Part shown: positions 7,821 through 51,651 of the stretch, one piece after another
Position numbering within the stretch: the first letter of the stretch is position 1
How the letters are laid out: every line of letters starts with the position of its first letter
Origin: Mayamaea pseudoterrestris
Lineage: Eukaryota
Assembly: GCA_027923505.1 (NCBI GenBank)
Contig: BROI01000016.1
Location: 186,001-250,000, forward strand
Length of the DNA: 64,000 nt
Direction of reading: 5' to 3'
Program-made: the position numbers and the translations under genes
The notes under the pieces: model-generated
What the model was told of the DNA's origin: nothing
Database searches by the model: none
Seen by the model: only the letters and a program-made list of their open reading frames with translations

Positions 7821-9452
7821 ATGGCGGAAACTCGCGCGCAGAAAGACGCGGCGTTTGCGCATGTTTACGAAGAGAACGTAGGCGTTTTCCAAGATCCTCA
7901 GTTCAAGGAGTTATTCGACGAACTCGGAGTAGAATCGCTTACGCAACTGATCGAGATGGAGTACGACGATTTCGCGACGAAGTGGAACGTCACGACGACG
8001 ACAACGACGACGACTGACGATGGCGACAATGTCACGCAGGAAACGAGCGAACACTCGCTAACGAAGATGAAACAACGCACGATCACGAACGCGATCGAAT
8101 GGTATTTGGCGCAAGAGTCGCCGGACATCAAGACATGGTCGCAACTGACCACCGAAACGCTGGCGACGTTCGTCACAGCACGAGCGAAGGAACGAGTCCA
8201 AGCGCGCAACATTGCGAGCGTGGGCAGCGGAAGCGGAGCGAAACCTCCAGCGAAGGAAAGCGAAACGGAATCCAAGAAGGACGAATCCAAGGACTCCACG
8301 CTAACGAACGAAGGCAACGAGTCGAAGCCTGACTCGGCCGACAAGGTGCCACCGACGAGTGTGGACGTGGACACGAAGCAGTCACCGACATCCGTACTGG
8401 ACCTCGGCGACGACGAAGACGACGAGAAGTATTCAGACCAATTTACGAAGTCTATCAAGTTCTCGGCGAGGGATTGTAAAGAAATGAAGCTGGATTCCTC
8501 GTGGAAACAGTGGATTTCCGAGTTGAAAGTCATCGCTACATTGCATGACTTCCACGAAGTCTTTGACGACGATTATGACCCGAAGGAAAAGGGACCGAAA
8601 GAACAGAAGGCGTATGCAAAGAAGAATGTGTTTGTATACAGGATCTTTCTCACGCACTGTCGAACTCCGTCTGCATCACTCGCAGTACAGCAGTTCAAGA
8701 AGACGATGGACGGACGCGAAGTCTACCAACGATTGCGAACGCGATACGAAGAAGGCGCTACTGCTCACATCGAGAAGGAACGCGCGCGAACGGAACTGCA
8801 GGGAATGCGGCTGACCGAGAAGTGGTCACGGCCGACGATCGAATTTCTCGCACTGTTCTACAAGAAAGTCATCTGGCTGCTCGAAATGGACGCAGAAGCT
8901 CTGACAGGTTTACAACGATACGACATGCTACGCGACGCTTTCTCCGAGCACACAGGATTCAGCGCATCACTCGCAGGTTTTGACGGAATGATTGCCATCA
9001 AGAAACACATGGGGCAACACGACTCGGAAGACAATTTCGCGCAGTTGTACGCGCACTTAGAAGAGTGCTGCATCAAGTATGACAAGAAACACCCATCGAC
9101 GACGAAGACTAAGCGCACAATCAATCAAGCGCAGTCTAGTGGAACGAAAGGAGGCGGCGGCGGCAATGGCGGCGCGACTCCAAGCGGCTTATCGGCGGAA
9201 CGATTTGCAGCGATCATGAAGAAACCTCACGCGAGCGTGAAGGATGAAGTCTGGTTGGAGATGAAGTTTGATCAGCGAAAGCAGTTGAAGGACAAGCGTG
9301 CGACGGCGCCCAAGACACCCGAAAACGGATGGCGACCGCGCAACCAACGAGGCACGGCTACGACGCAGACGCGAAGTCAACGCGGCGCATCAAGAGCGTC
9401 ACGCGACGGAATCTGTAGCGAACGATCACGCAAGCGTTCCTGGCACGATTAA
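7821..9452 (+). CDS. gag: Retrotransposon Gag
   Basis: Long ORF after the 5' LTR. FTKSIK..., ATLHDFHEVFDDDYDP, KNVFVYRIF and DGREVYQRLRTRY resemble diatom copia Gag. The 3' end runs into degraded sequence. Confidence 0.8.
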   Translation: MAETRAQKDAAFAHVYEENVGVFQDPQFKELFDELGVESLTQLIEMEYDDFATKWNVTTTTTTTTDDGDNVTQETSEHSLTKMKQRTITNAIEWYLAQESPDIKTWSQLTTETLATFVTARAKERVQARNIASVGSGSGAKPPAKESETESKKDESKDSTLTNEGNESKPDSADKVPPTSVDVDTKQSPTSVLDLGDDEDDEKYSDQFTKSIKFSARDCKEMKLDSSWKQWISELKVIATLHDFHEVFDDDYDPKEKGPKEQKAYAKKNVFVYRIFLTHCRTPSASLAVQQFKKTMDGREVYQRLRTRYEEGATAHIEKERARTELQGMRLTEKWSRPTIEFLALFYKKVIWLLEMDAEALTGLQRYDMLRDAFSEHTGFSASLAGFDGMIAIKKHMGQHDSEDNFAQLYAHLEECCIKYDKKHPSTTKTKRTINQAQSSGTKGGGGGNGGATPSGLSAERFAAIMKKPHASVKDEVWLEMKFDQRKQLKDKRATAPKTPENGWRPRNQRGTATTQTRSQRGASRASRDGICSERSRKRSWHD

Positions 9453-40300: not shown

Positions 40301-43300
40301 TGAGGCAGATAGGTCTGATCTGGAAGCTCGTCTAGCAGCTGTTACAGCAGCCGACAGCAAACTGCTAAATGTTGATGGCATCTTGGCACACGAAGATAGT
40401 GCACAAATCGTTACAAAGTTAGAAGCGAGAGCGAAAGAGCTGGAAGATGAGCTGGCGAGAGAAACTGGCGACGCTCAGACAGCCATAGCCGAGTGGCAGG
40501 AGGGTTACAATGCGCTTGAGTTGGAGAAGAATAATTTACAGTCACGATTCGATGATGCCAAAGCGGAACTCGAGCGAGTTATTCAATCTCGCGACGGAGT
40601 GCATAGTCGGATGGACAAGCTACTGGAGGACGTCGCTGGCACTTCTCACGCGAACAATGATGGGTTGTGTTTGGATGACCTTCGTGGACGTTTGCAGGAG
40701 CTAGCTGAGAAAAATCGTCAGCTTGAAAGTGAATTGGCGACTGCTACAGATGTTGTCTCCCAGTGGGAAGCAAGTTACACGTCAATGGAGACCGAAAAGG
40801 CAGAGCTAGAGTCTCGCTTAGAATTATACGAAGGTATGAAGGACAAGACGTCGCAGCCATTGGATGAGAGGCATGAAGCTTCCATAGCGGAATTAAACGC
40901 GAGAATAACTGTGCTTGAATCTGACAAAGTTGACTTGCAGGTCAAGTTGACCGATGTGGACGATCAAATCAACCATGTCCGCGTCAGCTTGAGCGTCGCC
41001 GAAAAGCAAAATGAGGAACTTGTCGACTTAACAGCCGAGAAGGAGAGCAAAATAAAAATTCTTGAGTCAAAGTTGAGTGAGGTCAATAAAAGCCTTACTG
41101 ACAAGGACAAAATTGTGGTGCAGCTCCAAACAGACAACGATCATTTGCAGACACGTCTGAGTGCGCTTATTTACGAAATTAAGGAAGCAACTGCAAACAA
41201 TGATGTTAGTTCCGAGATTGAGGATCTTCAGCGGCAGATCAAGCGACTGGAAATAGAGAAAGTTGCAATATCCGACGATCTGGCCGTTGCAGGTGATGTT
41301 GTTTCGCAGTGGGCAACAAGCTTCAACGATCTGGAAGCGGAAAAGAATGAACTTAAAGCTCGTATTCATGACTTTCAAGCGTTGAAGGATGCAGCAGCAG
41401 GAGAGTTGGAAAATGAGGCTGAAACAGCTATAACGCAATGGGAGAACCTTTGTAGCGAGCTTGAAACGGAAAAAAGCGACCTTCAAGCGCGATTGAACAC
41501 GATGGACAATGAATCTCAAGCGGCTCGACGTCGCTTACTTGAGCTTGAAAACAAATACGAAATCATCAACGCAGAGCTCCAAGAAGCCAGAAGCCAGAAT
41601 GATGCAATGCGAACCCAGCAAGCCAGGCTCGCTGAAACTGAGTCCTTGCTATCCGAAGCTACTACCATTGCACGACAGCGAGATAGTGAAAATAAAACTC
41701 TGATTGACGCACTGAGCGCGAAATGTGGCGAATACGACGTGGTGTCCTTAAAACTGGATGAATCTGAGGAAGTAGTAGGGTCATTGCGAGTGGAAGTAGC
41801 GTCTCTGAAAACAACTGTAGACGACAAGGAAGCTGCCGTTTTAGTAGCTCAGAAGCATATTCAAGAGCTTCAAAATGACCATCACGTTGTGTACGACGCG
41901 TTGCAGCAATCACGCAAATCATACGACGAACTTGCCGCTCGATTGGAAGCATCTGAAGCTGCGGCCACATCAATGCACGAAGAAGTAAGTCGCCTACGAA
42001 CCTGCGCAGACGACGCGGCGGCCAACCTGGAGTTAAAGAAGCGAATTCAAGAATTGGAAAACGATCATTATGTAGTGCACGCTGAATTGCAAAATTCAAG
42101 GCGATCATGCGACGAGCTTGCTGCTCGTTTGCAAGCATCCGAAAGTGCTGCCGCTTCGCTGCGCGAAGAAGTCGGTCGCCTTCGAAATAACCAAAAGCGA
42201 ATTAAAGAACTGGAAAATGATCATCACGTGGTATACCATGAGTTGCAGCATTCTCGAAACTTATGTGATGAGGTCACCGCTCGTCTGCACGCGTCCGAGA
42301 GTGTTGCTAGTATGCTGCGAGCTGAGAATGATCGTCTTCAAACAAGTGTGAAAGATCAAGCTGCCAAAACAGAGCGCATTCAAGAGCTTCAGAATGATCA
42401 TCGCGTCGTGCACAGTCAGTTGCAGGAGGCTCGAAGAACCTGCGATGAGTTTGCCGCTCGCCTTGAAGCTTTTAACAGCATTGCAGAAAAGATGGGTGAC
42501 GAAAATGATCGACTCCGAGAGATTCATAACGGAAACGATGCCGAAACGGAGGAATTGTATAAGTTACGAGACGAACTCGCCAAGTCAAAGGAGATCATTG
42601 ACAGGCTCGATAGTGACAATAGAAAATTATGCGTTGAATTTGAAACCTTCAAACTGGAGGCCGAATCAACAATTGCGCAATGGAAAGGTAGGTGGCATGT
42701 TGTTCACCTGTATGGAAACAATTGCTAGAGCAGCCACTCACATTTTTGATTTTCATTTATCAGCGACATTGGAGGAGGCGCAAGTCGAACTTGCCTCTAC
42801 TTCCAACAATGCCGAATTAGCTATTGATCAGTGGGAGTCTCGTTGCCGGGAATTGGATACGCGTATCTTCGAGTTGACATCACAGCTGGAATTGTTGCAA
42901 GCCACAGCAAGCACAGCATCCTCGACAGCTGCACTTGACTCGGAGATTGAGCGACTCAGGAACGACAATGCGAATCTGCTCACCGAACAACAACGTCTGG
43001 TCGGGCTTATTCACGAGCGCGAGAATGATGTCAAGGAAGCAACGGCTGCAGTCGAATTTCAAATCACCAACAGCGTTTCGGAAAGAGCTACGGCACTGGC
43101 ATCAGAGGCACTTCGAAAACATGTGGACGAGCTGCGATCTAGTTTGCAGGTGACTCAGCAGGAGTATCTTGACGCACACGATGCTCGCCTTGCCGCCGAG
43201 GATGAGGCCGAGCTTCTTCGCGAGGATTTGGCTGCCTTGCTCGGAATGAAAAATACTCCCGAAACGCAAGGTGAAGTCCGAAGACAAGCTTTAAATTTGA

Positions 43301-44595
43301 AGGTGGAGTTTCGACGAAAGGAGCGAATGGAGCTAATCGAATTAAAAGACTCCCTCGCCAATGCACTGGATCGTCTTGAAGCATCACACGAAGAGCAGCT
43401 TGCTGCCGAGGAGCGTATTTCCAAAACTAGCCTCCAGGCGACAATTTACGAGCAGGAACTCGTGTCAACAAAGGGCGATTTGAACATGTTGGTGGAAACG
43501 TTGGACGAAATGCGGCAGGCTGAGTCGACGCAGCGAGAAGCCATGGAGTACCGCATCAGTGAACTGCGGAACGAGTATCAGGTTTTGCAAAAGCAAAAAC
43601 TTTTACAGGTTGGCGCGCTGCAAAATGAGCTGTCTCAAATCACAATGGAGCGTGACCGGTTGATGAAGGCACTGAAGGAGAGTGAGCGTCACAAGGATTC
43701 TTTCTTCCAGTCCACCATTGGACGCGAGTCAATGGCAAGTGGCTCACCGACAAGCTTGCAAACAGAACTCGCCAAGCTGCGTTTAGAAAAGGCACACTTG
43801 CTGAATTCATTGTCCGAGGAAGCTGCCAACGTGGAGCGTCGGGTTCGCGACGCTCGAGCCGTGTCAAAATCAGTGGCCGAGGCAGAAGTGATTATCGAAC
43901 GAGAGATGCGGATGTCGGCGGAAAAGGCACTTGATGAGCTCCGCAGCGAAATGATTGCGTCAAGACATGCCAACGGTGACGATGCGAATCACCATGCACG
44001 AGACATTGACTTTGAGCACATGGAAGCTTTGCGCCAGGAAATCCAAGCGTTGCACGAGCAAAACATGTCGCTCGCCCAAGACATTACTCGTCTCGAGGAC
44101 CAACTGCATTCCAGCCAGGAGTCTGCCCGCAATGAAAAACGCAAACTAACCGAGGAGCTCAAGACAGCCATGACGCGCAACGTGCAGTTGGAGCGTGAGG
44201 GCCGACGCGAGGCTGAATTTTGCAGCGAATTGGCTCGGCTTGGCCAGCACGAGAATGTCAACAAGCGACGAGCCGACAATCCTGCGTCTGACGACGAGAA
44301 TGAAAATGACAACCAAGACGTCAAGCGCGATGAAGCTTTGCGTCAAATCAAGCAATACTATGACGAAACGCAGCGATTGAATGAACGTCTGGCGCACGAC
44401 CGAGCAGTCTATTTGGAGTTGCTGTCTCAGCACGACGACTTGCTGGCAGTTTTAGCTCAAGAGAATGCCATGCGCAAGTGTATTGAAGCGGCGCTGGAAA
44501 AGGTGGGAGGCAAGCCTGCCTTGGAACAGGCATTGATGGAAGCATCGAGCGGGTCGATGGCCGAGCATGGCGAAAAGAAGGAGTCGGAGAGTTGA
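34319..44595 (+). CDS. Uso1/p115-like vesicle tether with a very long coiled coil (~3370 aa; introns 37002-37089 and 42688-42763)
   Basis: Both GT-AG introns keep the frame across the three long ORFs. Head motifs YARVLCLQLL and LLRFLAHWVFGSPEVVHKLL...LTTLLLGLIL, and C-terminal QHDDLLAVLAQE, resemble the Uso1_p115 head and C domains. Confidence 0.72.
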
Positions 44596-44869
44596 TAAAC
44601 CACATATATATATATATTTAAATGCATGTAAGATAACTACGCACTGCTTGTATATTATATGCATATTGTTTGACGAGCGTTGCCTTGCCCAGGACGATGG
44701 ATTAGAGGCAGCGAAACGATAGCTGAAATCGCTGAACCGCTACGATTCTTCTTTTCATGCACGCTTCTTGCGTCGAAAACCAACCAAATCGACCATGACA
44801 TAACCGGCACCTCGGATCCATCATCGCCGTCGTCGCTACTACAATCACTATTACTTTGCTACTACTACA

Positions 44870-47800
44870 ATGGGAGTCCCTAAATTCTACCGCTGGCTGT
44901 CGGAGCGTTATCCGAAGATCATGCAGCGGCGCGGCGTTCGTCCCGACGTTGATCGCGCCATGGAGCACTTGGGACGCACCGCCGTTTGGATGCCGCAGCC
45001 GCAAGGAGACCTTGATACTGCTGCGGAAGGAACTGATAAAAAATTGTCCATCGAATCACTCAACTTGAAGCAATCAAGTCTTCCGTTACCCGATCCTCTC
45101 TCCGAGTCTGGACTCTTTCCAGAGATTGATCGCTTATACATTGACATGAACGGAATCATTCACGGCTGCTCCCACAGTAACCAAACGGACACTGAAGGAA
45201 CGTCAAACGTTTCCATGCAAGAAATTTGCAGCAACGTTTGCTACTACTTGGATCGCGTCGTGAAAGAAGTTGCCAAGCCAAACGAACTAGTGTACATGGC
45301 CATTGACGGAGTGGCGCCAAGGGCAAAGTTGAATCAGCAGCGAGCGAGACGCTATCGATCCGGGAAGGAGGGAGAAATCGAACGGACTGTCTATGATGCT
45401 CATGTACAAGCCATGGAGAAGGAAAAGCTAGCGTCGCTGGAAGAGCAGAGTCTAGGGGTGGAGCAGGAGGAGCTGAGGCATGCTGCGAGTCGAATGCAGT
45501 CAGTGGATGACTACGAGACGCTCCTTGATCATGAAAGCATCGCAAACAGTCAGCAGCAGCAGGAGCATGAACAATCATCATTTACTTCATCCAATCCAGT
45601 CAAGGAACTCCAGGATGGTAGATTCACTGGAAAGTTTGAAACGCAGGCGCCGGCAGAAATTGAAAACGATGACGTGCTCGACGAATCAGCAACGGACTCT
45701 TCCACTGCCACTACCACCAACAAGTTTCACTCCAACGCCATTACACCAGGCACGCCCTTTTTCCAGGAGTGCACGGAACGCATACTGGAATTCATTCAAG
45801 ACCGCATCAAGCACGATGACGACTGGAGCAAACTTCAGGTAATATTCTCCGGTCCAAACGTTCCAGGCGAAGGCGAACACAAAATTATGCAGTTTATACG
45901 CGAGCAGCGCTCTCTGCCAGACTACAATCCCAATTTACGCCACTGCATCATGGGACAGGATGGTGACTTGATCATGCTTGGCTTGGCGACGCATGAACCA
46001 AACTTGATGCTGCTGCGCGAGCAAGTGCTGTTTGACAAGCGAGCCGTTGATCGAGACGACATGGCTGGAGAGATTCCGTCACTTGACTTTTACCTTTTTA
46101 ATGCCAACTTTGAGTTGCTTCACATGAATGTATTGCGCGACTACCTGGCGTATGAACTGGAAACAATACTACCCGACAATCCATTTTGCTTGGAGCGATC
46201 CATTGATGACTTTGTATTTTTGACGTTTTTGGTTGGAAACGACTTTTTGCCGCACATGCCGGCGCTTGACATTGCCGACGAGGCATTCGATTTGTTGTTT
46301 TATACATATCGTGCCTTGCGCAAGCAGTGGGTCAAGCAGTCGCCAAAAAATCCATACTTGACGAATACTGGTAACATTGTTTCGGGCAAGCGACTGGAAG
46401 GCTTTTTGGCGGCGATTGGTGCGCACGAAGGCAAGTACTATGACTATAAGGATAGTGTCGTCGACTTGGATGTGCGGCGGGCGCGCGAAATCAAGTATGG
46501 GCGGCCGCAAACGCCAAGCGATGCAGTGCTTGAGCGCAAGGAGGAGTCGGACCGAATGCGGTATCGCGCCATGGTCGAGTCGGCTGCTACCGGAAATGCG
46601 AGTTTGCATTCCGACTTTACGCCAGTCCTTTCGGCGGCAACACTCAGCAAGGACGACAAGGAGCATGAGCGACAAGTGGAGCAACTTCACAAACTTTTGC
46701 AACTATCCGTTTCCGATACAAAGAGCATTGCCAATGTGATTGATGACACGGACTTGAAGGGAAGATACTACGCCGACAAATTTGACTTTTCACCGTTTGA
46801 CGCCGACAAGCACATTGCTTTGCGAAAGGCATATATGGAGGGACTTGTATGGAATTTGAAGTATTATTACGAAGGCTGCGTCTCCTGGGAATGGTATTAT
46901 CCGTATCACTACGGACCCTTCATGAGTGACTTGGTCGGTTTGGACGATTTGCTCGCGGAAATCACGTTTGAGGGTAAACTGGGAGCTCCTTTGAAACCGT
47001 TTGAGCAGTTACTTGCTTGTCTGCCGCCTTCGCACGCTCACTTGCTACCAAAGCCGTATCGTCGACTAATGAGAAACAAAACGTCGCCGATTGCCGATTT
47101 TTACCCGCCATCGTTCGTGATTGACATGAATGGAAAGCGATTGCCATGGGAAGCAGTCGTCTTGCTACCATTCATCGACTCGAACCGTCTCATTAATGCG
47201 GCCAGTGCCGTCGAGGAAAATACACTGACGGACGAGGAACGCCAGCGCAATTCACTTGTTGATACCATAGTCATGTCGAGTTCCGTCACTGACGGTGGAG
47301 ATGAAAGACACTTGTCAATTGTTCCGTTTGCCACCAGCCAATGGAAGTTTAAGAAGCGAAAGAAAGCGCCAGTCTTGCATCCAAAGGTGCTTCCAGGGAC
47401 AGAAACACCACTTCCTGGCTTACCCACCCTCCGGGACGGCTCTATAACGGGTTTGTGGCGCAAATACATCCCACTGAATGTGCATGGGGGTCGGAGTCGC
47501 TATAAGATCGCTTGCTTGGAAATGCAGAATGCTATACCAGAGATTATACCGCTCGACGCAATTGCGCGACAGTTCATTGGTACAGCCGTGGTGATCAACT
47601 ATCCACACTTTATTGAAGGTTTGGTCACGGCAGTGTCGGATTCATCGGGATTTATCCGAGGAACTGAGCATCGGCTCGTATCTTGGACGGCGCAGGAGCT
47701 TGCGGATCGGAAGAATCGTGCCAGAGAAGTCGTAGCGTCGTATGTGGTTGGAGAGAAGCTTGTGGGCACTGGTGGTTTGGCGCTTGCAGCGGGGCGGACA

Positions 47801-49219
47801 GCAATGGAGGATCTGGACGTACTCATGTTTGTCAGGCCATTGAAGGAGCTCAAGACGTTGCGCGACGGCACCGTCGGCAAAGTTTATGCCAAATATGAAG
47901 TCGAGGTTCCTCTGTTCGTCACGTCATGGGCTCCGCACAAACCGGATCCTCGCCTCGCAGGTCTACCGGCATTTCTGGAGAAGGATCCGTACCATAAAGC
48001 CGAATTAGTTGTTACGCATCGACAGTCCTTGCAAGACAACCCGAATGTTACCAAAAAGGGTGGGAATGCTTACGTGTTTCCGGCTCCGAGAGGCCTGAAG
48101 AGGGACCGGAAGCGATCGACTGCTGCGCGCGGTTTGCATACGAATGCTCATGGATTGTTTAGCTTTAATGGGACAGATTCCGTGAATCATTTATGTATTG
48201 GCGCCGCTTCACCAACTCGCTATTTACAAAAAGAATTTGTACAGCATTGCCCATTGCCTCTGCGTGCTCGTCAATGGGGACCAAGAGGGCAGGCGACGAC
48301 ACCTGTCTTATTCAATCGGCCGGCTAAGCTTCGGGCTTGTGCGACGGCACCGCAAACAAGATTTTTGGCTGGTGGAATCATGCTTGCTGGATTGCTGCTC
48401 TCGTTTACATCAGGAGCAGCAGCAAGTCGAGACGTTATGACGCATGGTGGAGCGCATGCACTATTTCAACCTGCTACTCGCTTACAAAAAGGCCACGGAT
48501 ACTCGCAAGCAATTGATGATTCCAATACCTTATCGTCGTGGCCCAAGTCCTATGACGCGGCCCCGCCTTTGCAGTTTGAACATGGTACGACGACTCTTTC
48601 TTTTATTTTTGAGCATGGTATGATTGTTGCTGTCGACTCTCGCGCCAGTTTGGGATCTTTCGTAGGCAGCAAGACGGTTGAAAAGGTTCTACCCATTCAT
48701 TCGCACATGCTTGGCACCATGGCTGGTGGCGCAGCTGACTGCAGCTTTTGGATTCGCAAGATTCGAGCGCAAGCCAAACTACATGAATTACAGTACGACG
48801 GCGAACGATTGTCTGTGACCCGGGCGAGCCGCATGCTCGCCAACGCCTTGTACGAGAATCGAGCGCTGGGCTTGTCAGTGGGAACCATGATGGTCGGCTA
48901 CGATGGCAGCAAGGCCAAGATATTCTACGTGGACAATACTGGCATGCGGATGGAAGGCGACATGTTTTCCGTCGGTTCGGGCAGCACCTACGCTTTGGGT
49001 ATTTTGGACACGGAGAGGCGCTGGAACATGAGCGTCGAGGAAGCGGTGAGCTTGGGCATCAAGGCGATTCGTCACGCCACCTTTCGCGACGCTGGGTCTG
49101 GAGGATGGATTAATGTATATTTGATTACTAAGAAGGATGGATGGAAGCATGTTTTTGCTCAGGACCTTGCTGGTCTGATTGTGACGACCGACGAAGTAAG
49201 AGGCGATTCGTCAGCATAA
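44870..49219 (+). CDS. XRN1-type 5'-3' exoribonuclease fused in frame to proteasome subunit beta5
   Basis: XRN motifs: MGVPKFYRWLSERYP, LYIDMNGIIH, AIDGVAPRAKLNQQRARRY, NAITPGT, PGEGEHKIM, DGDLIML, GNDFLPH, WYYPYHYGP, PFEQLL. Beta5 motifs: HG/TTTLSF...AVDSRAS...TMAGGAADC...FSVGSGS...RDAGSGG, with Thr1 at 48587. No stop codon between the two parts. Confidence 0.92.
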   Translation: MGVPKFYRWLSERYPKIMQRRGVRPDVDRAMEHLGRTAVWMPQPQGDLDTAAEGTDKKLSIESLNLKQSSLPLPDPLSESGLFPEIDRLYIDMNGIIHGCSHSNQTDTEGTSNVSMQEICSNVCYYLDRVVKEVAKPNELVYMAIDGVAPRAKLNQQRARRYRSGKEGEIERTVYDAHVQAMEKEKLASLEEQSLGVEQEELRHAASRMQSVDDYETLLDHESIANSQQQQEHEQSSFTSSNPVKELQDGRFTGKFETQAPAEIENDDVLDESATDSSTATTTNKFHSNAITPGTPFFQECTERILEFIQDRIKHDDDWSKLQVIFSGPNVPGEGEHKIMQFIREQRSLPDYNPNLRHCIMGQDGDLIMLGLATHEPNLMLLREQVLFDKRAVDRDDMAGEIPSLDFYLFNANFELLHMNVLRDYLAYELETILPDNPFCLERSIDDFVFLTFLVGNDFLPHMPALDIADEAFDLLFYTYRALRKQWVKQSPKNPYLTNTGNIVSGKRLEGFLAAIGAHEGKYYDYKDSVVDLDVRRAREIKYGRPQTPSDAVLERKEESDRMRYRAMVESAATGNASLHSDFTPVLSAATLSKDDKEHERQVEQLHKLLQLSVSDTKSIANVIDDTDLKGRYYADKFDFSPFDADKHIALRKAYMEGLVWNLKYYYEGCVSWEWYYPYHYGPFMSDLVGLDDLLAEITFEGKLGAPLKPFEQLLACLPPSHAHLLPKPYRRLMRNKTSPIADFYPPSFVIDMNGKRLPWEAVVLLPFIDSNRLINAASAVEENTLTDEERQRNSLVDTIVMSSSVTDGGDERHLSIVPFATSQWKFKKRKKAPVLHPKVLPGTETPLPGLPTLRDGSITGLWRKYIPLNVHGGRSRYKIACLEMQNAIPEIIPLDAIARQFIGTAVVINYPHFIEGLVTAVSDSSGFIRGTEHRLVSWTAQELADRKNRAREVVASYVVGEKLVGTGGLALAAGRTAMEDLDVLMFVRPLKELKTLRDGTVGKVYAKYEVEVPLFVTSWAPHKPDPRLAGLPAFLEKDPYHKAELVVTHRQSLQDNPNVTKKGGNAYVFPAPRGLKRDRKRSTAARGLHTNAHGLFSFNGTDSVNHLCIGAASPTRYLQKEFVQHCPLPLRARQWGPRGQATTPVLFNRPAKLRACATAPQTRFLAGGIMLAGLLLSFTSGAAASRDVMTHGGAHALFQPATRLQKGHGYSQAIDDSNTLSSWPKSYDAAPPLQFEHGTTTLSFIFEHGMIVAVDSRASLGSFVGSKTVEKVLPIHSHMLGTMAGGAADCSFWIRKIRAQAKLHELQYDGERLSVTRASRMLANALYENRALGLSVGTMMVGYDGSKAKIFYVDNTGMRMEGDMFSVGSGSTYALGILDTERRWNMSVEEAVSLGIKAIRHATFRDAGSGGWINVYLITKKDGWKHVFAQDLAGLIVTTDEVRGDSSA

Positions 49220-49369
49220 GATTCACGAGAGACAACTCGAAGAAATAGTTCATAGGTTAAGTTGTTCTCAAAAATATACTGCTCGTAACGAGCAGTGTTG
49301 CTTTTGTCGTACTGAGCGTTTTACCGTACCCATTCATTCTCTTCCATTATACAAGACGCCCGAATCACT

Positions 49370-50587
49370 CTACTTTCTTTGAAACAAGTAATGCGAAACA
49401 ATCCACTCATTGCCTTGATCATATCCCCAGAGCTCTGCACACGCCATGTAGAAGAGACGCCAGTGCACGTACCACTCATATTCCTTGCCAGCTCCATAGG
49501 CTTGCGCCAAGACTGGCTGCAGCTTGCCGTTGCGCCAATTTTCATCCAACGTATTCAACCACGCCTCACTGGTGCGGCTGTAGTGCGTTCCATTGACCCG
49601 CCAATGGTTTTGAATACCAAATTCGTTGGCAAAGTACAGCAGCAAGTCGTCCGACGGCATGGTTCCGCCCGTGAAAAAGTGTTTGGCCATCCAACCATCC
49701 TCGAAATGATACGGCTGATCCTTGTGAGTGAAAATGTGGACAAACAAGCGACCGTTTGGTTTCAAAAAGGAATGAATCTTGGTGAACAATTGCTGGTAAT
49801 TCTTCATATGCTCCAAGAATTCCACCGTCATGACCAAATCGTTATTTTTGACAACGTCCAGTTTGTTTTGATCATTGCTCACATCGCAGGTAATCACATT
49901 GATATTGTCTACGTTCAAGCCACGTTCCTTGGCCGTCTTGAGAATATAGTCTCGCTGCGAATGAGAATTGGATATGCTGGTAATCTTGGTGGAGGGGTAG
50001 TGCTCGGCCAAGTATAGCGTCATACTTCCCCAACCGCAGCCCAAGTCGACAATGCTCATGTTCGAATCAGTGACTCCCGCACGCTGACAGTACAAGTCGA
50101 GCATGACTAATTCACTTTCCGCAAAGGTAGTTTCTCTGCTGGGCCAGTAGCCACTGGAATATTTTTTGCAGGGACCAAGACACAAGTCGTAAAAGGCGGC
50201 TGGCACTTCATAGTGCTGCTCATTGGCCGCCACGGTTTCAATGGCAATGGGAAGTTCCCTTAGTTGCTTGACAATGGCTAGTTTCGCAATCAAGTCTTGT
50301 TCCACGTCGCGTCCCGTAGGATGAAGCTCCACCAGGCGTCCCTTGAGTTGCATGCGAATGCCGAAACGCACCAAGAGATCGGGAAGGAGTCCCTTGTAAA
50401 CCAATGGAGTCAAGTAGTCGGATACACTGGATAACGTTTGCGCTAAAACGTCCTTGACGCGAGGAGCGAGCAGGCGGTAGGCGCCATACAAGATGACCAA
50501 GTGATGGACGCGCACGTCCGCGTAGCTTGTCGGAAAGTGCAGCTGACGGTGCGGCGAGAGCGACGTTGAGAATGGAGACGGTGACAT
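49370..50587 (-). CDS. SAM-dependent methyltransferase, CFA-synthase/coclaurine N-methyltransferase-like
   Basis: ANEQHYEVP, KYSSGYW, DLGCGWGS, SNSHSQR, EHMKNY, FFTGGTMPS, W..NGTHY..T.EAW. Confidence 0.9.
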   Translation of the reverse strand: MSPSPFSTSLSPHRQLHFPTSYADVRVHHLVILYGAYRLLAPRVKDVLAQTLSSVSDYLTPLVYKGLLPDLLVRFGIRMQLKGRLVELHPTGRDVEQDLIAKLAIVKQLRELPIAIETVAANEQHYEVPAAFYDLCLGPCKKYSSGYWPSRETTFAESELVMLDLYCQRAGVTDSNMSIVDLGCGWGSMTLYLAEHYPSTKITSISNSHSQRDYILKTAKERGLNVDNINVITCDVSNDQNKLDVVKNNDLVMTVEFLEHMKNYQQLFTKIHSFLKPNGRLFVHIFTHKDQPYHFEDGWMAKHFFTGGTMPSDDLLLYFANEFGIQNHWRVNGTHYSRTSEAWLNTLDENWRNGKLQPVLAQAYGAGKEYEWYVHWRLFYMACAELWGYDQGNEWIVSHYLFQRK

Positions 50588-51651
50588 TTTTATTGTCTGA
50601 AAGTCTCGTTCCTTTCCTGGTTAGTTGATGACAGAGTAGCTCTAGTACTTGCTTGCTTGTGTGACAGTGAAGGATTGCGTTCCTTGCTGAATGAAACGAG
50701 TCAGCGATGCACGATGGATCATGATTGGGAGGGATTATGGTGGAACGAGAAAAAGCGTTCGCGTGCGTCATTGATCGAAGCCACTACTCACACTACCGGT
50801 CCGACAAAGGTCACCGGTGCGATGAAAGTTGGGCACGCGCGCGCGCAAGGGGAGCTCCATTTATTTCATCGCTGCGATGGAAAAAGTGGCCGATGCGTGC
50901 GCAGCGAGCTATTTTGCGTCTTGCATGTTTGAAGTGTGCGATGTCCCGCGAAGCCACTTTGCTATACGACGGCAGACATTTTTAAGACGTCATAAAGTAG
51001 AGGAACATGAAAGTCACAACCCACCCAGTGAAATACAGCAAGAAGCGAAGGTCAATGGTAGCTTCCAAGTCTTCTCGCTCGTCGTTTTTATTTGCCGATC
51101 TCAGTCAAAGTTGAGCAGTTGACATTCATCACTCATCACATTCTTCCACTTTGTTGTCTGTTGTCCGGCCAGAGACAAGAAACGAAGCCATTAAATACAA
51201 GCACCGAGATGGAAACCGACCAATTTTGTAGCGCAGCAGACAGCTTATTCGAGACGAGATTCAATTGATATCGACATTGTCAGTGCCGACATGCGATCAG
51301 TGCGTTATATATACTCGCATTTACAAATCTATGTCAAGAAACTACACGACACTTGTTTAGCTGTAAGTCAATATAACAACAGTAAAATAAAGTTTGAAGC
51401 ATGCCGCTATCGTATCAATCTGTTGCAGGGCAAGTTTCGATTGCGCTGCAACGCTACATGAATGCTGCAGACTCGACTCGTTCACACCAAGCTTGCAAGT
51501 GACAGCACATTGATGCCAAGTTGACAGTGAATCAAGAGAATGAGTAGACGTCACTTTAGTAGGTATACACGTATTGCACACTTGAGTGCGATCCTGTCCC
51601 TTGCTGTCTATCGAACATGACATGACTCGAGAGTCTGCAAGTCTTCCCGGT

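Follow-up and report, generated by a model that had tools for sequence, protein, structure and literature searches.

In the polyproteins of flaviviruses, pestiviruses and hepaciviruses, internal signal peptides are used, and after the signal-peptidase cut the upstream protein keeps a hydrophobic anchor at its C-terminus. Diatoms use a bipartite topogenic signal, which consists of a signal peptide and a transit-peptide-like domain, with an aromatic residue at the +1 position directing the protein to the stroma and a non-aromatic residue directing it to the periplastidal compartment (PPC). This kind of signal is a topic of PMC3017844. PPC-type paralogues of the 20S proteasome subunits alpha2, alpha7 (two), beta2, beta3, beta6 and beta7 have been reported in Phaeodactylum tricornutum, and several of them were localised to the PPC; in the part of that report considered here, neither a PPC beta5 nor a 19S particle is described (Moog et al. 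2011, PMC3101018). Here we analysed a stretch of 64,000 nucleotides from Mayamaea pseudoterrestris (GenBank assembly GCA_027923505.1, contig BROI01000016.1, positions 186,001 to 250,000 of the forward strand; hereafter the window, in whose own numbering all positions are given), where one open reading frame (ORF) encodes an XRN1-type exoribonuclease followed by a paralogue of the proteasome subunit beta5, with a signal-peptide-like hydrophobic segment, FLAGGIMLAGLLLSFTSGAAA, between them.

The locus resembled each of these systems in part. As in the viral polyproteins, one ORF would give a cytosolic upstream product and, as proposed below, a translocated downstream product, whereas the diatom fusion is a conserved cellular nuclear gene, its cleavage is only a proposal, and the NPGP motif of 2A-type ribosome skipping, a candidate that was rejected, was present in 0/119 of the fusion proteins compared below. 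The segment shared with the diatom bipartite signal the anatomy of n-, h- and c-regions, a small-residue cleavage site and, at a site placed by a heuristic, a +1 residue that was neither aromatic nor Leu in 106/119 proteins. It was unlike that signal in being internal, in being followed by a weakly positive stretch and then an acidic propeptide, and in having its Ser/Arg-rich part upstream of the hydrophobic core. The PPC-type 20S paralogues (s-alpha7, s-beta2, s-beta6, s-beta7 and others; PMC3101018) are likewise, in the parts of the sources considered, extra copies with a signal for the endoplasmic reticulum (ER), with signal-less host copies beside them and no 19S partners, and some of them, such as J14449 and J43079 in PhaeoNet, have a basic stretch before the hydrophobic core. 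They differed from the present case in that no beta5 was reported among them, that the signal of the fused beta5 sits after about 1165 residues of XRN, and that its location in the PPC is a prediction.

The fused reading frame and its distribution

The plus-strand frame was free of stop codons from 44804 to 49219, and translation from the ATG at 44870 gave a protein of 1449 residues (Table 1). In the XRN half, the Pfam domains XRN_N, XRN_M and XRN1_D1 followed each other in the order expected of an XRN1-type exoribonuclease. The three domains, the MGVPKF N-terminus and the lack of an N-terminal signal are features that the fusion shares with XRN1/Pacman, the cytoplasmic 5'-3' exoribonuclease; unlike that enzyme, the C-terminal tail of the diatom fusion continues into the signal-like segment and a protease subunit. 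Diatoms seem to have an organelle-targeted XRN too: a separate XRN with an N-terminal signal and a transit-like extension was found in P. tricornutum (EG01543) and in Thalassiosira pseudonana (Thaps3a_20608). In the rows considered, PhaeoNet called EG01543 red-algal, and the T. pseudonana organelle-proteome supplement recorded Thaps3a_20608 in the plastid fraction with the ASAFind call 'Plastid, high confidence'.

Homologues were searched with residues 1080-1449 as the query among proteins of 796-2536 residues, and the best 120 of 132 matches were compared. XRN and Proteasome Pfam domains were found together in all of these best 120 matches, apart from the source protein of the window itself and one fish entry. 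The fish protein (P0233) has a Proteasome domain under the annotation cadherin-24 isoform X1; it probably reflects a chimeric gene model and has no relation to the diatom fusion. The statistics given below refer to 119 fusion proteins, with the source protein of the window included. All the named sources of fusion proteins were diatoms, namely Cylindrotheca, Fistulifera, Amphora, Nitzschia, Conticribra, Thalassiosira, Skeletonema, Detonula, Pseudo-nitzschia, Seminavis and Corethron, and a cluster look-up extended the list to Ditylum. Gene model Phatr3_EG02257 represents the fusion in P. tricornutum; its N-terminus differs from that of the FLAGGIMLAGLLLSFTSGAAA protein, so that the window stems from a different diatom. 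Several of the matches were transcriptome ORFs of 1155-1662 residues; therefore one mRNA spans XRN and beta5. The frame was open across the poorly conserved linker in 119/119 proteins. The original prediction had described the proteasome subunit as nested in the XRN frame. It was right that one frame holds both, but it understated the case, since the XRN-beta5 gene fusion, as judged from the predicted proteins, is real and diatom-wide. No paper describing an XRN-beta5 fusion was found in a full-text literature search, and the fusion can be recognised from database names and from Phatr3 (EG02257). A search of the ESM Atlas returned generic proteasome clusters only, with no useful taxon information.

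The junction in the window was also covered by public sequencing data. One Logan contig of 1179 nt spanned positions 47638-48816 free of gaps and joints, in contigs from four public runs whose kind is unrecorded; these contigs report no molecule ends and have no bearing on transcript starts. No RNA run was listed for this locus. Among the 40 of 121 variants listed for the public-run contigs, 25 of the 30 inside the ORF were synonymous, and the linker held three, two of them synonymous, too small a number to be of use. Over 43500-50500 the contigs fell into two haplotype-like variant sets, and in one contig 17 letters directly upstream of 44867, where the XRN ORF starts, had no match.

The hydrophobic segment before the beta5 domain

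The order of the elements in the translation was GLKRDRKRSTAARGLHT ... RPAKLRACATAPQTR-FLAGGIMLAGLLLSFTSGAAA-SRDV, followed by a spacer of 54 residues and HG|TTTL. The basic stretch rich in Arg, Ser and Ala, the FLAGGIMLAGLLLSFTSGAAA-SRDV sequence and the ATG at 48380, 69 codons before the catalytic Thr1, had all been pointed out in the original prediction and agreed exactly with the translation. The uncharged stretch comprises codons 1165-1186 (nt 48362-48427; 22 residues), and FLAGGIMLAGLLLSFTSGAAA contains the most hydrophobic 15-residue window of the entire protein, with a Kyte-Doolittle value of 2.17. The Kyte-Doolittle mean over 15 residues (KD15) was used as the measure of hydrophobicity, with a cut-off of >=1.6. 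In the linker upstream, codon usage scored at the intergenic level, and the GC content at third codon positions (GC3) was 0.43, compared with 0.57-0.60 for the domains.

The segment proved to be a conserved element of the family. In all of the 119 fusion proteins, an uncharged stretch with a median length of 20 residues directly followed Arg or Lys, starting 51-126 residues (median 76) before Thr1. At least two basic residues were present among the six before the stretch in 113/119, with the sequence RGR in 49/119, and the 100 residues upstream of the segment contained 13.5 % Ser and 10.3 % Arg and had a median net charge of +11. A KD15 of >=1.6 was reached in 112/119, and the stretch was the top hydrophobic window of its protein in 109/119; the seven proteins with KD15 <1.6 showed the same pattern and were richer in Ala, Gly or Asn. 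Within the stretch, some 13-15 hydrophobic residues form a core, and the roughly 5-7 small polar residues after it form a c-region that has Ala, Gly or Ser at positions -1 and -3; by a simple rule, such a (-3,-1) site was placed 12-27 residues into the stretch in 119/119. At this heuristic site, the +1 residue was Ser in the FLAGGIMLAGLLLSFTSGAAA protein and Phe, Trp, Tyr or Leu in 13/119. An acidic stretch preceded Thr1 in 104/119. Such an anatomy is more in keeping with a cleavable signal than with a simple transmembrane span, as far as the residue pattern can indicate.

The comparison with other beta5 proteins showed that the segment, which had been suspected to be signal-peptide-like, is particular to this paralogue. 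Among the collected beta5 proteins showing at least 60 residues upstream of Thr1, KD15 was >=1.6 in 153/163 of the fused paralogue type and in 2/102 of the truly canonical type. A regular expression for the signature had filed 109 proteins as canonical, nine of them with KD15 >=1.6; seven of the nine were misfiled fusion proteins, the removal of which gave 2/102. In an AlphaFold2 model of residues 1140-1449 built from a 37-sequence alignment, the roughly 100 residues before the beta5 core had a predicted local distance difference test score (pLDDT) of 45-58, with a short helix over the hydrophobic core and no packing on the beta5 core, a result for the presequence that says nothing on targeting. 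Taken as a whole, the segment very probably serves as a true targeting element for a beta5 of non-canonical type.

Two further motifs were observed, one in the linker and one in the presequence. An in-frame motif [RK]x[FY][SAH][ST] (RSFST, RGFAT, RSFHS) was present in the linkers of 63/119 proteins compared with 21/1353 background windows, at a median of 47 residues before the hydrophobic core; in the window, RSTAARGLHT (about 48110-48140) is at best a degenerate copy. We take this motif to resemble an R-3 site of the mitochondrial processing peptidase (MPP) or a basophilic kinase/14-3-3 site. In many homologues (P0004-P0035 and others), a motif h-x-h-R-G-G-[D/E], such as LKLRGGDF, LMLRGGEM or IQIRGGDL, lies about 25-35 residues before Thr1; it resembles the ubiquitin C-terminus LRLRGG and is followed by the acidic stretch. 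A looser [RKH]GG pattern occurred 12-50 residues before Thr1 in 65/119, and the source protein has only THGG at about 48443-48451. The RGG motif might be a processing site of the presequence.

The beta5 paralogue and its relatives

The Pfam domain Proteasome (PF00227) was found at residues 1237-1419 (E 4.6e-43), with Thr1 (GTTTL) at nt 48587. All 60 of the solved relatives shown were beta5 or beta5i chains (beta type-5, type-8, PRE2), the best with an E value of 8.1e-65. HGTTT with Gly-1 and Thr1, D17 and K33 were invariant across an alignment of 37 relatives (A1), and the GSGS and RDAGSGG (RDxxSGG) motifs aligned with those of the solved beta5 chains. The catalytic residues D17, K33, S129, D166 and S169, in the numbering of the yeast enzyme, were thus present. 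The core was modelled by AlphaFold2 with a pLDDT above 90 and was 51-59 % identical to the canonical beta5 of distant eukaryotes. On these grounds the fused beta5 looks like an active paralogue. The PF00227 fold, Gly-1/Thr1, D17, K33, GSGS and RDxxSGG are thus features in common with canonical beta5 (PSMB5/Pre2), the propeptide of which is removed autocatalytically. The fused form is unlike PSMB5/Pre2 in its hydrophobic presequence, in its fusion to XRN and in existing beside canonical copies in P. tricornutum and T. pseudonana. It is also distinguished by the signature G-S-K-T-[TV]-x-K-V-L-P, in contrast to the canonical G-S-G/Q-T-V-K-K-[VI]-I-E.

The canonical beta5 of P. tricornutum, Phatr3_J20007, is assigned to K02737 and predicted to be cytoplasmic without a signal (PhaeoNet Table S2), and that of T. 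pseudonana, PSB5 (Thaps3a_5435), is SignalP-negative (organelle-proteome supplement), in the rows considered of each. Both carry the canonical signature SGTVKKVIEINP, whereas the fused type has GSKT[TV]xKVLP. Because P. tricornutum and T. pseudonana also hold a signal-less beta5, the fused beta5 is a second paralogue. The suspicion that it is not the ordinary host copy was borne out by its own signature, its own group in the tree and the separate canonical copies in two diatoms, all of which set it apart from the canonical cytosolic subunit. PhaeoNet assigns the fusion EG02257 to the 'steelblue' module, whose members include XRN2 as well as RRP41, RRP45 and RRP46 of the exosome; this fits transcription from the XRN promoter, and the canonical 20S genes among the rows listed are all in the 'darkgrey' module. 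Other signal-bearing 20S paralogues in the PhaeoNet rows were EG00657, J11795, J14449 and J43079. No proteasome row was present in the T. pseudonana plastid-fraction sheet among the rows listed; counts taken from PhaeoNet Table 2 and from the T. pseudonana supplement are lower bounds, being counts among the rows listed.

Stand-alone relatives of the fused paralogue were also found. A metagenome locus (L001) contains a stand-alone beta5 paralogue in an ORF at 7995-8969, with a stop codon just upstream, minus-strand neighbours and no XRN, and the hydrophobic segment of its product comes after the first Met residues. This protein was 100 % identical to P0246, the cluster of which includes a Leptocylindrus aporus entry. 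Thalassionema transcripts labelled 'type:complete' start with MMKALANNLIYISLLLACDCSVVQASS and are stand-alone with an N-terminal signal element; the label implies, as we assume from TransDecoder practice, a stop codon upstream. Another stand-alone transcript (P0269) starts with MKTTVFEIAFVVISLIL and is labelled ORGANISM="Heteros...", probably Heterosigma, a raphidophyte; its TAXON_ID, 39354, is that of a flowering plant, so that label and id disagree. A protein of the brown alga Choristocarpus shares the signature of the fused paralogue. In an unrooted FastTree tree of 52 sequences, the stand-alone diatom forms nested among the fused ones, and the red-algal sequences of Cyanidioschyzon and Rhodochaete lay inside the canonical clade, which contained no canonical ochrophyte sequences, apart from the fused and signal-bearing type. 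Because of these placements and of the stand-alone forms, the signal-bearing paralogue seems to be older than the fusion, and the fusion appears to have arisen in diatoms and to have been split again secondarily, as far as the sampled sequences indicate. The original prediction had proposed a beta5 phylogeny as a check on a symbiont origin. A red-algal origin of the fused beta5 was not supported, with no grouping with red-algal beta5 in this quick, unrooted tree.

Table 1. Features of the fused reading frame in the window; nucleotide positions are those of the window.
Feature	Residues	Nucleotides	Strand	Basis or remark
XRN1-type exoribonuclease and proteasome beta5 paralogue, single ORF		44870..49219	+	1449 codons and stop; ORF list, translation, four Pfam families, >100 fused homologues
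XRN part overall		44870..47899	+	Pfam
XRN_N	1-385	44870-46024	+	Pfam, E 1.1e-81
XRN_M	441-802	46190-47275	+	Pfam, E 6.3e-92
XRN1_D1	848-1010	47411-47899	+	Pfam, E 5e-08
Ser/Arg-rich basic linker, no stop codon, weak codon bias	1071-1164	48080..48361	+	Translation, GC3, codon usage
Signal-peptide-like element FLAGGIMLAGLLLSFTSGAAA	1165-1185	48362..48424	+	Hydrophobic core (about 15 residues), then c-region of small residues; signal peptidase would cut after AAA
ATG codon of Met1171, in frame, within the hydrophobic core	1171	48380..48382	+	69 codons before Thr1; not conserved
Spacer and beta5 propeptide	1186-1239	48425..48586	+	First 25 residues net +2; last 25 before Thr1 net -3
Mature beta5 paralogue from catalytic Thr1	1240-1449	48587..49216	+	PF00227, solved relatives, catalytic residues, pLDDT >90

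On either side of the fused ORF, a minus-strand neighbour downstream (49370-50590) encodes a cyclopropane-fatty-acid-synthase-like methyltransferase (CMAS, E 3.2e-30), and a plus-strand ORF upstream (42445-44595) encodes 716 residues rich in Glu, Leu and Ala with no Pfam match.

Possible routes from one reading frame to a separate beta5

The XRN part has no stop codon of its own; therefore every translation of XRN must run on into the hydrophobic segment and beta5. The signal element is N-terminal in the stand-alone relatives; in the source ORF it is internal, as in most diatoms, beginning at residue 1165, and no conserved Met precedes it. A polyprotein with an internal signal is the simplest mechanism consistent with these observations. 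The original prediction had offered either a second start or an internal membrane element with XRN and beta5 on its opposite sides, and the latter fits the conserved open frame best. In such a polyprotein, the N-terminal half would be a cytosolic XRN1-type 5'-3' exoribonuclease, made and folded in the cytosol, and FLAGGIMLAGLLLSFTSGAAA would be the version found here of the paralogue's ER signal peptide, with its basic residue, core of about 15 residues and small-residue c-region. As this internal signal emerged from the ribosome, some 1165 residues into the protein, the ribosome would be directed to the (chloroplast) ER, where beta5 would be translocated. Signal peptidase would then cut after the c-region, here after AAA at 48424/48425. 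XRN would stay behind on the cytosolic side, where the hydrophobic core might serve as its C-terminal membrane anchor, while the beta5 precursor would reach the PPC, join the signal-bearing 20S paralogues localised there and lose the rest of its propeptide by autocatalysis at Gly-1/Thr1. The destination in the PPC, the ER targeting from an internal position, the cleavage and the membrane tethering of XRN are what we infer from the encoded proteins, and we give the mechanism in full an even chance of being correct.

Several points weigh against it. Codon usage over 48125-48424 was no better in the frame of the ORF than in the other frames, so that translation of the linker in the source organism is deduced from its openness and its homologues and not from codon bias. 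The restriction of the search to long proteins means that the 119-protein set gives no frequency of interrupted linkers, and the stand-alone genes of some diatoms indicate that beta5 can come from a start of its own. The signal-like status of the segment was assigned by heuristics (KD15, charge and the (-3,-1) rule) and not by SignalP or a transmembrane predictor. The 25 residues after the putative cleavage site had a family median net charge of only +1 (positive in 60/119, negative in 41/119), and this stretch appears weakly transit-peptide-like, while the Ser/Arg-rich sequence that does resemble a transit peptide sits upstream of the core, the wrong order for a diatom bipartite signal. A complete PPC set of 20S subunits is not documented in the part of the literature considered. 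To our knowledge there is no cellular precedent for an internal cleaved signal so far into a protein.

The separate beta5 might instead arise from an internal promoter or an internal initiation, with its N-terminus at or just before the segment, which would then be an ordinary signal peptide; the fusion would be an accident at the level of transcription or of the ORF, and this route could coexist with that of the polyprotein. The ATG at 48380, which is followed by about eight hydrophobic residues and AAA, the stand-alone genes with an N-terminal signal in some diatoms, and the intergenic-like codon usage and low GC3 of the linker are all in its favour, and the stretch begins with Met in 11/119 proteins and has a Met among its first eight residues in 35/119. 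However, the start at Met1171 that the original prediction had put forward was poorly supported: this residue is aligned with Leu in P0123, the nearest relative (64 % identity), 43/119 proteins have no Met from -35 to +8, and only 14/119 have one within the ten residues upstream of the segment, where its frequency of about 2 % is the background rate. Without a need for read-through, stop codons would be expected to accumulate in a poorly conserved linker that was nevertheless open in 119/119, full-length transcripts exist, and the P. tricornutum fusion, in the PhaeoNet rows considered, is co-expressed with RNA-decay genes. A second start was therefore regarded as unlikely. It is far harder to believe that the fusion is an artefact in which an assembly error, an overlooked intron or a fortuitous open frame links two neighbouring genes. 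The weak codon bias of the linker would agree with such an artefact, but the fused ORF recurs in over 100 protein clusters, which come from numerous diatoms and include transcriptomes, the public-run contigs crossed the junction without gaps or joints, and about 100 stop-free codons would arise by chance in random sequence in an estimated ~1 % of cases.

Two other explanations accept the fused protein and read the segment differently. It could be a stable transmembrane helix that is never cleaved, giving a type-II-like protein with XRN in the cytosol and beta5 in the lumen, or one with both halves tethered to the membrane surface. The length of the stretch (median 20 residues, 22 in the source protein) would span a bilayer, and the basic residues on its N-terminal side are as the positive-inside rule predicts. 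The short core with its small polar c-region and the Ala, Gly or Ser at -1 and -3 in every fusion protein are the anatomy of a cleaved signal, however; in the stand-alone relatives this element is found at the N-terminus, and beta5 could not become part of a 20S particle while tethered in the lumen, which makes a permanent anchor quite improbable. Alternatively, there may be no targeting, and the fused beta5 may be an alternative cytosolic or nuclear subunit like beta5i and beta5t of vertebrates, freed by autolysis at Thr1, with the segment forming part of an atypical propeptide or linker and serving, for instance, in assembly or interaction. The intact catalytic residues and the 51-59 % identity of the core to distant canonical beta5 are what a working 20S subunit would show, and autocatalytic release at Gly-1/Thr1 needs no other protease. 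On the other hand, the element has the anatomy of a signal and is N-terminal in the stand-alone relatives, it is missing from the propeptides of canonical beta5 (2/102), and an exposed hydrophobic core of about 15 residues is unusual in a soluble cytosolic protein; the lack of confident packing of the segment on the core in the AlphaFold2 model points the same way as weak evidence. A purely cytosolic or nuclear role thus appeared improbable.

The polyprotein with an internal signal can be carried further. One mRNA and one ORF might yield a cytosolic XRN1 and an organelle-directed, active beta5, split co-translationally at the chloroplast-ER, with XRN1 tail-anchored on the surface of the ER and beta5 as the missing catalytic subunit of a PPC proteasome without 19S, and a stoichiometric coupling of ER-located mRNA decay to periplastid proteolysis could be the selected trait that keeps the frame open in diatoms at large; this extended form is a tentative proposal that we consider somewhat less probable than its opposite. 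The premise of the original prediction that some 20S paralogues are localised to the PPC was in agreement with the literature on P. tricornutum, where no beta5 was among them in the portion considered (Moog et al. 2011, PMC3101018). A beta5 of the present type would have been missed by a screen for N-terminal signals because its signal is hidden behind XRN.

If the internal signal acts as proposed, a cellular gene that splits a cytosolic RNA exonuclease from a translocated protease in this way would be unusual outside viruses, and it could point to an ER-anchored XRN1. Whether the PPC has a working proteasome was, in the part of the report considered, left open by Moog et al. (2011, PMC3101018), and a signal-bearing beta5 paralogue with apparently intact catalytic residues makes this question directly testable.

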